NCBI RefSeq assembly: GCF_058153355.1 | Contig: NZ_CM177019.1 | Length of the DNA: 64,000 nucleotides | Reading direction: 5' to 3' (one strand) | Part shown: positions 39,301 to 46,951 of the stretch, one piece after another | Layout of the letters: every line of letters begins with the position of its first letter | Position numbering within the stretch: position 1 is the first letter of the stretch | Program-made: the position numbers

Positions 39301-42300
39301 ATCGCCCGGCTCATGTCATACATCACGCTGGTAGCTACCGCTTTAACGCGGGTATCCATCGCCGCGTCGTTCAGCGCCATGCCGCCCCAGCCACAAATAC
39401 CGAGCAGCCCGATACGGTTGCGATCTACCTCTTTTTGCAGCCCTAAGAAATCCACCGCCGCGCTGAAATCTTCAGTGTTGATATCCGGTGAGGCGACGTT
39501 TCGCGGATAGCCGCCGCTTTCCCCGGTGTAAGAAGGATCGAACGCCAGGGTAACAAACCCTCGTTCCGCCAGCGTCTGCGCATACAAGCCGCTGGATTGC
39601 TCTTTCACCGCGCCAAATGGCCCACTGACCGCAATCGCCGCCAGCTTGCGATCGCCACGGTCTTTAGGCAGGTAAAGATCGCCCACTAAGGTGATGCCAT
39701 ATCGGTTCGGGAACGAGACTTTACGGTGATCGACTTTCTGGCTCTCGGCGAACGTTTTATCCCATTTATCTGTCATGGACACAGGGGCATTAGGATTGGT
39801 TGAATCAGCATAACTCATTGTCGTGACTCCACTTAATGATGCGAAAAGCAGCATGGTCGGCATCGCGATTTTTAGCGTTCGGGTGAAGGCTTTCATAAAA
39901 ATCCCCATAAAAAACAACAGAGAGATACAGGTTTCCGACGGACAACACTGCGGTGCTTTACTTTGATGGGGTCATTATAGTGAGCAGAATTAGTGCTGAT
40001 TAGGGGGCGATTAATGCTAAGATTAATACCATATTGTTATAAATTAATGCGGAGATTGCCGGCATGAAGGGGGGATGTTTCAATGGCGAAAAGGGAGAAC
40101 TACAACGAGCTGTACCTGTTTATGCAGGTGGTGCGGGAAGGCAGCTTTACCGCAGCGGCTCAGCGGCTGGGTCTTGCTCAGTCAGGAGTCAGCCGTTCTG
40201 TTCGCGAGCTTGAAGAAAGGCTCGGCGTCCAGCTGCTAGTGCGCACCACGCGTAAACTGTCGCTGACGCAAGCAGGCGAGCAGCTCTACCAGAAGACGGC
40301 ATCTGGATTTGAAATGTTAGATCTTGGGCTTGCCACACTGGCGCACTATCGAGAGACGCCCTCCGGCACGGTGCGTATCAATGCCAGCCAGCACGCGATT
40401 GATAAATGCCTGCTGCCAAAGCTGGCGGTATTTAAACAGCGATATCCTGATATCCGGCTTGAACTGATAAATGAGAGCCGGTTCGTCGATATCATCGAGG
40501 AAAGATTCGATGCTGGTGTCCGCCTGGGGCCTGAAGTCGGTCAGGGTATGGTCGCGGTACGCATCACGCCCGATATGGAGATGGCAATTGTGGGGACTCC
40601 GGAACATTTTCGTCGCTATGGTTTTCCGCAAACCCCGGCGGATTTAAAGGCGCATCCCTGTATCGCCTATCAGTTTGCCGACGGCAGCGTATACCAGTGG
40701 GAACTCAATCAGGATGATAAAAAAATCACTCATCGCCCTGAAGGGCAATGGGCCCTATCCGACAGCTATATGGAAGCAGAAGCCGCACGGCTGGGCCTCG
40801 GATTGGCCTATGTTCCTGTTGAACTGGTTGCGGATGATTTAGAACACGGTAAGCTTATCAGAGTGTTGCAGCGTTACAGCCTGCGAATGGAGGGATTGTT
40901 TCTCTATTACCCTCATCGCAACGTCTCCCCCGCTCTGCGGATGGTCATTGATACATTGAAAATCTGAACGTTAACAACGACCGACTCTTCACTGTGCAAT
41001 ATTGTGTCAGGTAGTCATTCTGCGTTCAATTCCAGGGGCCGCTTTGAGCGAAGAGCGGACCTTCTCGCCCTGTACGTATAGAAAGCTACAAATTGATGTT
41101 TCATCTTCCAGATAGTTACAGGCAAAACGGTATATTCCAGAATTACCTGTACTCAAGTCTGATTACTTAGGTCTTATTTATGTCGGAAACCATCCGGGCG
41201 TCTTCTGAATCACTTGCCATAGTTTTTCAGGGATCGCCAATTCGTCTGAGTGTTGCGACAGGATAAGCGTGTTTTTTACCTTATCCTCATGGCCTGCCTG
41301 CACCAGCTCCATCCAGTTGGGATTCATGACAATCGTCCGGCCTATGGCAACCAGTGACAGTCCGGCCTCCAGAGACTGTTGAGCCGCTTGTGATGAAGTA
41401 ATTTTTCCCGCTGCCAGCAGAGGTAAACGCCCATTCAGCTGCTCTACAAACCGTGCCAGAATCGTATCCTTACCCTCACTACTCTGCGGCCGGTCGGTCA
41501 GTACGTCGTGGAGTGAGATATGGAGATAGTCAATGAGAGACTCTTTCTCTAACTGACCAGCCAGGGCCTGGGAGTCATTAATCCGTAATCCTCCGTCTCC
41601 TGACTCTTCCGGCGATAACCGGTAACCCAATAAAAAGGGTTTTCTGGCATGAGCTTCAATAACCCGCCGGACTTCCCGAACGACCTCCAGCGGGAAACGC
41701 ATACGGTTTGCTAATGAACCCCCCCATTCGTCAGTACGCAGGTTAAACCAGGGGGAGAAGAAGTTCTGGATAAGAAAACCATGCGCACCGTGCAATTCAA
41801 CACCATCAAAACCGGCCTCAATTGCGCGGCGAGTGGCTTCGCCGAAGTCATGGATCACACCAGAAATTTCGTCATGGTCCAAAGCCCGGCAGGCTTGTTC
41901 GCCACGATTAAAAGGGCCAGCCGGAGCGGCCAGGGCACTGGCGCTGACGATCTCCCCACCAGGGATGAGTTCGGGAACCGCTTTATTACCGGCATGAAAC
42001 AGTTGCAGAATTGCCAGCGCCCCCCCGCTTTTTGCTACATCAGCCAGTTTCCTCAGACTCGGGATAAAACGATCATCGTAGGCTGCGAATTCATTGGTGA
42101 AACCCACACCGTTTCTCTGAACATGAGCGCATCCCGTTATCACTAATCCCACACCGGTAGCGCGCGCCCGATAATAGTTTACTTCTTCATCTGAAATAGT
42201 TTCATCGTCATTAGCGGACCAGGTGGTCATCGGTGCCATAACGACGCGGTTACGCATCCTGAGACCATTTTTAAACGTGAAGGCCTGGGTTAATAAGTCA

Positions 42301-45300: not shown

Positions 45301-46951
45301 TTTCCCAGCCATTACGGAACATCGAGCCGATATTAACGGCACTGACCGTTCCGATGGCCTTGATGCGACGATCCTGAATCGCGGCATTGGCGGTATAGCC
45401 TGCACCGGCGCAAATTCCCATCGCGCCAATTTTCGCGCTGTCGACATAAGGCAGTGTGGTCAGGTAATCAATCACCGCACTGACATCTTCGGTACGGATG
45501 TACGGGTTTTCCAGCTGGCGCGGCTCTCCGCCACTTTCGCCCTGATAAGACGCATCATAAGCCACTGTCACAAACCCTTTTTCTGCCAGCTTTTCGGCAT
45601 AGGTTCCGGCAGTTTGTTCCTTAACGCCACCTCCCGGATGAGAGACCACAATAGCCGGGTACTTGAGGCTTTCATCAAATGCGGGTGGGAAGTAAAGCAC
45701 GGCGGACAAAGAGATTGTCGGGATATTGCTGTTGGTGAAACTGATTTTCTGGTTCATCATCCGGTTCCTCATTGGGCTGTCGGTTATCTGTCACGCTTGA
45801 TGGGATAACTATAGCCATTGATTATTAAGATGATTAGACCCAAAATAATGATTGGACTTATCATTTAAATGATTAATACATCGGGTGGGGACGCAGAAAT
45901 GAAACGCGATGAGATAGCAGATCTGATGGCATTCGTGGCCGTCGCTGAAGAGCGTAGTTTCACCCGGGCTGCCGCCCGTCTTGGTATGGCGCAGTCAGCG
46001 TTAAGCCAGATAGTGCGCCGTACAGAAGAGCGCCTGAATCTGCGGCTTCTGACGCGTACTACACGCAGCGTTGTTCCCACAGAAGCGGGTGAACACCTCT
46101 TGTCTGTTCTTGGCCCAATGCTGCATGACCTGGATTCCGCGCTGACTTCCCTGGGCGATCTTCGCGATCGCCCGTCCGGCACCATACGCATTACCACAGT
46201 GGAACATGCCGCAAAGACCATATTGCTTCCCGCCATGCGTACGCTGTTGAAATCCCATCCTGAAATTGATGTGCAGATCTTCATCGATTATGGCCTTACT
46301 GATGTCGTCTCAGAGCGCTTTGATGCCAGGGTTCGCCTGGGGGGAGAAATGGATAAGGATATGATTGCTGTTCGAATCGGGCCCGATATCCCGATGGCAA
46401 TTGTGGGTGCGCCGGAGTATCTCTCGCGAAGAGGTACCCCTGTGTCTGTGGCGCACCTGGTCGATCATCAGGCTATTAACCTGTACCTTCCTTCATCGGG
46501 CACCGCAAATCGCTGGAGATTAGTGCGCGGAGGGCGCGAAGTCAGGGTTCGCATGGAAGGACAACTTCTATTAAATACGATAGACCTGATCCTCGATGCC
46601 GCTATTGACGGGCACGGCCTCGCGTATCTGCCTTATGATCAGGTTCAGCAGGCTATTGTAGAAAAAAAACTGATCCGCGTTCTGGAGAAATTTACGCCAG
46701 ACTTACCAGGATATCACCTGTACTACCCACACCGCCGCCATGCGGGTTCGGCATTCTCTCTGTTAATTGATGTGCTGAAGTATAAAGGGGATGTTTAACT
46801 ATTCTTTTTGATGGTGATTCCAGTCGTTCAGAGAGTACTAATACACCTTTGTGCAACGTCCGCTCCTGGCACAAAGCTGACCATCACCCTCCCTCCAAAT
46901 TAATGAACACATCTAATAAACCCTAGCTAATTACCCTATCTAATTGAATAA

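Follow-up and report, generated by a model that had tools for sequence, protein, structure and literature searches.

A stretch of 64,000 nucleotides from contig NZ_CM177019.1 of RefSeq assembly GCF_058153355.1 (hereafter the window) holds, at positions 41178–46798, a compact cluster of five minus-strand genes beside a divergent gene for a LysR-type regulator. The first gene, hydA (44840..45760, 306 aa), encodes a Cys-nucleophile alpha/beta hydrolase orthologous to E. coli YcjY, and the second, hydB (43908..44840, 310 aa), a paralogous Cys-hydrolase orthologous to intact YmjD. Next comes nmrA (43251..43901), which opens with GTG 6 nt after hydB and encodes an NmrA-like/NAD_binding_10 atypical short-chain dehydrogenase/reductase (SDR), the orthologue of intact YmjC. 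The last two are add-on genes: one for a classical SDR (sdr, 42345..43178, 277 aa), 72 nt beyond nmrA, and one for an atypical subgroup of the Old Yellow Enzyme (OYE) family of flavoproteins (oye, 41178..42305, 375 aa), 39 nt further on. The PgrR-like regulator gene (45899..46798, plus strand, 299 aa) lies across a control region of 138 bp (45761..45898). The original prediction of five tightly packed genes beside a divergent LysR gene thus stands in its coordinates, its spacings and the TAATG through which the hydB start and the hydA stop share 1 nt. The assigned families are likewise backed by Pfam, with matches to DLH, Peptidase_S15 and Hydrolase_4 for the hydrolases, NAD_binding_10/NmrA (194 bits) for the NmrA-like protein, adh_short (180 bits) for the SDR, Oxidored_FMN (265 bits) for OYE, and HTH_1 plus LysR_substrate for the regulator. 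None of the products reaches an NCBIfam equivalog cut-off, and the more than 6000 homologues of hydA carry only generic depositor names.

Two of the gene starts call for comment. The longest open reading frame of hydA spans 44840–45772 (minus strand); we prefer the start at 45760 (MMNQK) because it is preceded by a GAGGA Shine-Dalgarno sequence and yields a protein of the same 306-aa length as YcjY. The longest frame of the LysR gene opens at 45869, and the start homologous to that of E. coli PgrR is 45899. With all five genes on the minus strand, gaps of -1, 6, 72 and 39 nt, and no internal terminator or promoter called, the reading frames and their spacing support a single compact, co-oriented unit as first proposed. 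In a consensus scan, promoter-like and terminator-like sites were not enriched within the operon; an Rfam scan of 40900–47000 gave no match, and folding of the region downstream of oye revealed no clear terminator (z = -0.55). Every downstream gene has its own Shine-Dalgarno sequence, that of sdr being strong. The nmrA–sdr spacer also holds a 9-bp hairpin (43204–43234), which we rejected as a terminator or attenuator, since its stem (-13 kcal/mol, z = -0.9, no U-tract) is not significant.

The first part of this unit has a named counterpart. A megablast search of complete E. coli genomes paired the LysR gene and the first three operon genes with the pgrR locus, at about 80% nucleotide identity. 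The native locus sits between mpaA and mppA and is annotated as pgrR, two alpha/beta hydrolases and an SDR-family oxidoreductase. At the protein level, the regulator is 88% identical to PgrR/YcjZ (264/299 residues, gapless) and HydA is 92% identical to YcjY, while HydB and the NmrA-like protein share 87% and 84% of their residues with the intact YmjD and YmjC of E. coli O157, respectively. The cluster is therefore no orphan: its regulator and first three genes are 84–92% identical at the amino acid level to the named pgrR/ycjY-ymjD-ymjC. The top structural matches agree, HydA scoring 628 bits against the YcjY crystal structure 5XB6, deposited as an 'uncharacterized protein', and the NmrA-like protein 405 bits against the YmjC-type 3QVO, followed by weaker matches to biliverdin-IXbeta/flavin reductases and ChuY. 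Our literature search found no paper on 5XB6 or 3QVO, and no substrate for YcjY, YmjD or YmjC is reported in the literature that it returned.

By its sequence, the host is an Escherichia, the proBA genes of the window being 95–99% identical to those of E. coli. Much of the window is likewise ordinary E. coli accessory DNA (15000–21500 and 37400–41060, 98–99% identical). The operon segment is rare: 41054–46831 matches one of 5426 complete E. coli genomes, that of strain C8, at 92% and at a different locus, where the LysR gene is a pseudogene; the adjoining 46800–51500 matches only few E. coli genomes, at no more than 92%. At the far end of this DNA lies thrW, a tRNA-Thr (CGT) gene (54651–54726), adjoining a truncated integrase gene (53868–54488), and GC content drops to 0.41–0.46 at 50–54 kb. 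Since an Escherichia host carries this rare foreign DNA beside thrW, the cluster is an acquired extra copy and not the native ycjY locus; we identify it from these comparisons as a horizontally acquired second copy (xenologue) of the pgrR/ycjY-ymjD-ymjC module. No direct repeat of the thrW 3' end was found at the left junction of the foreign DNA (~41054–41060), so we do not claim a clean integrative island. The truncated integrase keeps only its arm-binding and central domains, and the low-GC stretch holds an NTP_transf_6 nucleotidyltransferase gene (51879–52436).

Identical copies of the OYE protein are encoded, with the same surroundings, in two NCBI assemblies and two sequencing runs. The complete six-gene block is present in E. 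coli C8, in Klebsiella sp. R390 and in two metagenome contigs. Plasmids of Klebsiella, Raoultella and Pantoea share with the window, at about 92% nucleotide identity, a four-gene core consisting of the LysR gene, hydA, hydB and the NmrA-like gene, set there in unrelated flanks; 40 of the 55 matching plasmid records are predicted to be conjugative. Homology to this plasmid core stops at 43226, 25 bp past the nmrA stop and inside the spacer hairpin, so that the spacer looks like a recombination junction. The 5' end of the SDR gene survives as a remnant on one K. aerogenes plasmid, a sign that the five-gene form was the earlier one there.

The native E. coli module, surveyed in 30 evenly spaced E. 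coli records, is largely decayed. The three-gene operon is intact in about a quarter of them (7/30), while 21 carry deletions of 14% or 24% of the mpaA–mppA region that take out ymjD and part of ymjC, and two keep even less. The larger deletion class, taken to be the K-12-like state, leaves only remnants of the NAD-dependent dehydratase. In nearly all E. coli genomes pgrR-ycjY is retained between mpaA and mppA. Most laboratory E. coli carry a decayed native copy, which makes intact acquired copies the better experimental material. PgrR was named from genomic SELEX (systematic evolution of ligands by exponential enrichment), with a regulon of ycjG, ycjXF-tyrR and ycjY-ymjDC-mpaA (PMC5934670). 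The GXCXG motif of YcjY has been noted earlier (PMC3709699), and overexpression of ycjY leads to filamentation (PMC3614548).

LysR-type regulators classically bind a recognition site near -65 and an activation site near -35 of the promoter that they control. The control region of the window holds the four TGATT(A/G) repeats already described there, at 45819, 45831, 45849 and 45870. Four such sites on one strand within 57 bp are not a chance cluster, because the window-wide density is only about 1 per 1.2 kb per strand. Two of the four sit in elements conserved across bacterial classes, and the repeats represent the half-sites of a predicted LysR operator. When we aligned 60 orthologous LysR–hydA spacers, the dyad ATCA-N6-TGAT was exact in 54, as compared with 5% of shuffles even allowing one mismatch. 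In the window it reads ATCATTTAAATGAT (45860..45873), identical to that of E. coli O157; it adjoins the LysR start, is centred near -65 of the predicted hydA promoter, and is the likely recognition site of the regulator. A CTAATC box (45832..45837; GATTAG on the plus strand), at about -36 to -31, is likely to be the activation site and overlaps a weak -35 hexamer; in 42 of the 60 spacers the distance between the dyad start and a CTAATY box is exactly 36 nt. The predicted -10 of the operon promoter is TATAGT (45808..45813, minus strand), and an element of the form TA.A.T recurs in the spacers of Enterobacterales and Alphaproteobacteria at a distance of 60 nt from the start of the dyad. All three elements are common to Enterobacterales and Alphaproteobacteria.

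If 45808–45813 is the -10, then the dyad near -65 and the box near -35 reproduce the classical layout, and the weak -35 (TAATCA) is as expected for an activator-dependent promoter. On the plus strand, a promoter-like site at 45835–45864, presumably the LysR gene's own, has a -10-like TATCAT that is overlapped by the dyad. This overlap fits negative autoregulation, as in E. coli, where PgrR represses its own promoter (PMC10505187). The operator is not shared by the other two LysR–hydrolase pairs of the window, whose spacers are different.

The two hydrolases, both cytoplasmic, are 41% identical to each other and belong to a family that includes two further hydrolases of the window, HydC and HydD. 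The proposed cysteine nucleophile is borne out in full: the GxCxG cysteine C117, together with H281 and D286, is invariant in 109/109 HydA/B/C/D-type sequences, and the three residues likely form the catalytic triad. Also invariant in these sequences are R81, R132, R172, R210, Y205 and Y206, arginine and tyrosine residues that would be apt for a negatively charged substrate. An AlphaFold model of HydA (predicted local distance difference test, 79; predicted template modelling (TM) score, 0.83) superposes on 5XB6 with a TM score of 0.88. After 5XB6 and PA2218 (2HDW), its closest fold matches are the fungal trans-acting thioesterase DcsB and GrgF, with a PETase-like enzyme, feruloyl, cinnamoyl and chlorogenate esterases and monoglyceride lipases further on; no ClcD-type dienelactone hydrolase is among the top 50. 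The Pfam DLH match of HydA (38 bits, cut-off 21) covers only residues 32–139, equivalent to profile positions 11–123 of 217. A defluorinating hydrolase of Serratia was discarded as a relative, the paper on it concerning an unrelated Ser enzyme.

HydA proteins remain 71–84% identical across phyla, while synonymous sites are saturated and GC at third codon positions ranges from 0.26 to 0.90, ameliorated to the host. Such conserved proteins in host-ameliorated genes with saturated synonymous sites indicate long residence under strong purifying selection, not recent spread.

HydC (38760–39917, minus strand) has an apparent Sec signal peptide (…MSYA/DS, by reading), keeps the GxCxG cysteine and resembles PA2218 (PDB 2HDW). 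Its gene forms a third LysR/Cys-hydrolase pair with the divergent LysR40 (40083–40967, plus strand) and is followed by a gene for a major facilitator superfamily (MFS) transporter (37491–38684, minus strand). This LysR40/hydC/MFS unit (37491–40967) occurs in 912/5426 E. coli genomes. The paoABCD genes for a periplasmic aldehyde oxidoreductase lie just upstream of it (32509–37312), and the stretch around paoABCD and hydC is dense in aldehyde-, carbonyl- and ester-processing genes.

How far the neighbourhood is conserved was scanned with hydA as the anchor and one genome per species, giving 80 loci that span Enterobacterales, many Alphaproteobacteria, Burkholderiales, Xanthomonadales, Bacteroidota, Acidobacteria, Nostoc and Nitrospirales. 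A PgrR-type LysR gene, its product 55–94% identical, is divergent from hydA in 55 of 78 loci, and 56 of 80 have a hydB/hydD-type hydrolase gene no more than 2.2 kb from hydA, this gene following hydA directly in 46 of 71. The NmrA-like gene accompanies hydA in 24/80. OYE does so in four of the 65 loci that have enough downstream sequence, and the SDR orthologue in a single one of the 80, that of Klebsiella sp. R390; it is also present in E. coli C8. Likewise rare are mpaA and ycjG, found together with hydA in three loci, all from Escherichia or Shigella. What is conserved is therefore the LysR gene, hydA and hydB, with or without the NmrA-like gene, and not the full set of five. This core is of old standing, complete in itself and mobile between genomes and plasmids. 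Clustering of the other open reading frames beside hydA revealed no recurrent partner besides an AraC-type regulator. That regulator is encoded on the same strand directly upstream of hydA in eight Bacteroidota loci, in place of the divergent LysR gene, and the enzyme module of Bacteroidota is thus rewired to a different sensor family.

The two add-on genes have a context of their own. The translated SDR shows the motifs TGxxxGxG (VTGAARGMG), NNAG and YxxxK (YSASK) and scores 285 bits against PRK06180, for which the cut-off is 298. The OYE keeps the HGAH motif and the His-x-x-His pair. Its sequence at this point is HGAHGF, and alignment places a Phe, residue 177 of the open reading frame, where the Thermus chromate reductase (CrS) has its proton-donor Tyr, so that the canonical HxxHGY is absent; Phe is also found in 76/80 metagenome relatives. 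In fact HGAHGF and PMTTW are kept together in every hydrolase-linked OYE and in those same 76 of 80 relatives, and this Phe-type subgroup, widespread in metagenomes, appears uncharacterised. The loss of the proton-donor tyrosine renders the C=C reduction assumed for this enzyme less secure than had been supposed.

We then took OYE as the anchor and counted its neighbours in 64 metagenome loci with enough flank. An AKR2-type aldo-keto reductase (AKR) was the neighbour in 22, an SDR at least 40% identical to that of the window in 14, a Cys-hydrolase in 11 and a LysR49/17-type regulator in 10. Just such genes stand directly beside the operon, in an adjacent reductase module (47000..49785) that comprises AKR1 (47000–47851, plus strand) and AKR2 (47878–48867, plus strand), both Aldo_ket_red proteins, and LysR49 (48892–49785, minus strand); these are likely functional allies of SDR and OYE. 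A separate reductase set that recurs as LysR, AKR, SDR and OYE is the source of the two add-ons, and the metagenome neighbours, taken with AKR1, AKR2 and LysR49 beside the operon, lead us to view 41178–49785 as a YcjY module fused with a carbonyl/enone reductase module. Such a combination arose no fewer than two times within the window, and once more each in Citrobacter and in Caballeronia. LysR49 is transcribed divergently from a second NmrA-like/NAD_binding_10 gene (49934–50707); downstream of the latter, related contigs carry YdgH/BhsA-like and AraC-type genes.

A paralogous composite of AKR1b, AKR2b, LysR17, LysR19, hydD and OYE2 lies at 15103..21414, in native E. coli accessory DNA; matches in 1785 of 5426 E. 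coli genomes span 80% or more of it. The AKR1-AKR2-LysR block is thus doubled in the window (15103–17936 and 47000–49785), with amino acid identities of 95, 95 and 90% for AKR1, AKR2 and LysR49. One copy is in native accessory DNA and the other in the foreign segment, each near a LysR/Cys-hydrolase/OYE set. The part of the composite at 18096–21414 had been described as a reduced version of the operon at about 60% amino acid identity. This description is apt for the shared logic and for the hydrolases (HydB and HydD, 63%), but not for the OYEs (52%) or the LysR proteins (30%), which come from different LysR lineages. Both OYE paralogues, that of the operon and OYE2 (20272–21414), carry HGAHGF and PMTTW. 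The pairing of hydrolase and OYE recurs separately: twice in the window, in Citrobacter and in Caballeronia.

We interpret the locus as an acquired copy of the PgrR/YcjY module that has been extended by two reductase genes and has an inducible role in hydrolysis plus reduction, a reading that we favour by a modest degree. We envision that LysR would occupy two sites of the hydA promoter, the ATCA-N6-TGAT dyad around -65 and the CTAATC box around -35, while repressing its own promoter. On sensing a small molecule, it would switch on one polycistronic hydA-hydB-nmrA-sdr-oye transcript. HydA and HydB would then cleave an ester, lactone or thioester bond via an acyl-thioenzyme, and the three reductases would reduce the released carbonyl, enone or quinone functions. 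In this role the operon would serve to catabolise or detoxify an electrophilic ester or lactone that is natural and widespread. In this general form, hydrolysis and reduction in detoxification or catabolism remains the most economical account, as originally put forward, and we also agree that no substrate can be read from the sequence.

Several points weigh against this interpretation. Co-transcription of SDR and OYE with the core is something that we infer, across a 72-nt spacer holding the 9-bp hairpin in which homology to the plasmid core ends. OYE and SDR stand with hydA in only four and one loci and are therefore not essential to the core chemistry, and ene-reduction by an OYE that lacks the proton-donor tyrosine is uncertain. 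The nearest characterised fold relatives of HydA are acyl-transferring thioesterases and feruloyl esterases, not a dienelactone hydrolase, and the unusually strong purifying selection on hydA fits a conserved natural metabolite better than a xenobiotic. Finally, the description of PgrR as a repressor of murein-peptide genes (PMC5934670) and the filamentation upon ycjY overexpression (PMC3614548) both hint at a cell-wall link.

The strongest competitor, though still an unlikely one, is that two independent units adjoin by chance, the core ending after nmrA and SDR-OYE forming a separate electrophile-stress unit, for example under a LysR49-type regulator. In its favour, the plasmid core ends 25 bp past the nmrA stop, inside the hairpin; as a rule, SDR and OYE are accompanied by AKR2 and LysR49-type genes but by no hydrolase, and sdr brings a strong Shine-Dalgarno sequence of its own. 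Set against this, all five genes share one strand with gaps of 72 and 39 nt in which no promoter-like or terminator-like site was called, and the spacer hairpin is not significant (z = -0.9). The six-gene block is moreover kept in E. coli C8, Klebsiella sp. R390 and two metagenome contigs, and the SDR 5' remnant on the K. aerogenes plasmid suggests that the five-gene form came first there.

Peptidoglycan-peptide recycling would make the hydrolases Cys-type peptidases acting on murein peptides and place the operon in cell-wall turnover. The E. coli PgrR regulon of ycjG, ycjXF-tyrR and ycjY-ymjDC-mpaA (PMC5934670) points in this direction, as do the EcoCyc entry 'peptidoglycan degradation', weak Peptidase_S15/S9 matches and the filaments seen on ycjY overexpression (PMC3614548). 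The peptidase matches span only the generic hydrolase core, however, and NAD(P)H reductases have no obvious part in peptide recycling. The murein genes mpaA, ycjG and mppA accompany the module in 3/80 loci, only in Escherichia and Shigella; no murein genes are found at the plasmid, Klebsiella, Serratia, alphaproteobacterial or Bacteroidota loci, nor is one near the copy in the window. This restriction to two genera weakens the murein reading, which we keep as an improbable one because of the SELEX data and the filamentation phenotype. Acyl transfer or polyester synthesis, with the GxCxG enzymes as thioester-dependent transacylases or short-chain polyhydroxybutyrate synthase-like enzymes, is more doubtful still. 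YcjY, with YsgA and YghX, was proposed from its GXCXG motif as a candidate polymerase of complexed polyhydroxybutyrate (PMC3709699), and once YcjY and PA2218 are set aside, the trans-acting thioesterase DcsB and the chain-fusing GrgF rank among the nearest folds that have been characterised. Identity to these fungal enzymes is only about 20%, though; the 80 neighbourhoods contain no genes for polyketide synthases, polyhydroxyalkanoate synthesis or coenzyme A ligases, and the literature that we found holds no confirmation of the polymerase proposal. Least credible is quorum quenching, in which the hydrolases would be N-acyl homoserine lactone (AHL) lactonases like UilS and other DLH-type enzymes while SDR and OYE reduce 3-oxo or unsaturated acyl chains: the UilS family (NF047920), whose namesake carried a dienelactone hydrolase annotation and proved to be an AHL lactonase (PMC11633161), is the best named NCBIfam match of HydA, HydB and HydC, but they reach 86, 73 and 67 bits where the equivalog cut-off is 400 bits, so far below it that membership was rejected for HydA and HydB, no luxI or luxR emerged from the clustering of the 80 hydA neighbourhoods, and two paralogous hydrolases with a dedicated LysR conserved in many taxa are left unexplained.

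Returning to the extended PgrR/YcjY module with its hydrolysis-plus-reduction role, its significance lies first in the native enzymes. YcjY, YmjD and YmjC have names, a regulator and crystal structures, yet no known reaction, and the locus sharpens that question. The LysR gene and the two-hydrolase unit are kept from Enterobacterales to Rhizobiales, and the hydrolases also in Bacteroidota, Cyanobacteria and Acidobacteria. The confinement of the murein link to Escherichia and Shigella questions the current functional label of PgrR. A defined predicted operator is now usable for reporter screens, and the joining of the module to reductases in nature limits the range of reactions worth assaying. 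As a bolder and tentative proposal, which we judge rather less than probable, the module may be an ancient, strongly constrained and mobile pathway for a natural metabolite with PgrR as its dedicated sensor, the label 'peptidoglycan recycling regulator' being a by-product of E. coli gene order. Its substrates would then belong among the alpha,beta-unsaturated esters or lactones, with plant coumarins and butenolides as examples, as the repeated fusions with Phe-type OYE, SDR and AKR, two of them in the window, would indicate. Organism names, and the isolation sources of some Klebsiella plasmids, suggest an association with plants or soil for many hosts of the module.

Among characterised systems, a bacterial coumarin/dihydrocoumarin route offers a lead, and only a lead: an ene-reductase acts on an alpha,beta-unsaturated lactone, and an alpha/beta-hydrolase then opens the ring. 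The core module itself lacks OYE in most taxa. Dienelactone hydrolases of the ClcD type share with HydA the Cys nucleophile in a GxCxG elbow, the invariant His and Asp and an above-threshold Pfam DLH match. This match is limited to the N-terminal half, however, and by fold HydA groups with YcjY, PA2218, DcsB, GrgF and feruloyl esterases; nor do maleylacetate reductase or catechol-pathway genes lie near the operon. The AHL lactonase UilS of Serratia marcescens, likewise annotated as a dienelactone hydrolase, is a distant sequence relative (86 bits against the 400-bit cut-off) that differs in gene context and regulation. With the OYE electrophile-detoxification units, namely NemA of nemRA-gloA and the YqjM-class enzymes including Thermus CrS, the OYE of the window has in common the flavin mononucleotide-binding TIM barrel, the His-x-x-His substrate-anchoring pair and an association with carbonyl reductases. 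In contrast to NemA and the YqjM class, its subgroup has Phe for Tyr and, in PMTTW, Thr/Trp for the Cys/Tyr of YqjM, and its regulator is of the LysR type instead of the TetR-type NemR.

By far the closest system is pgrR/ycjY-ymjD-ymjC-mpaA of E. coli, with which the cluster shares gene order, divergent layout, the identical dyad ATCATTTAAATGAT and 84–92% amino acid identity. The copy in the window differs in its chromosomal site, a variable region beside thrW, and in its nucleotide sequence, which is about 80% identical. It lacks mpaA, ycjG and mppA and carries SDR and OYE instead, and its genes are all intact, whereas most E. coli genomes have deletions in ymjD/ymjC. The locus is hence not categorically new; it is an architectural variant of a named but biochemically uncharacterised E. 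coli system.

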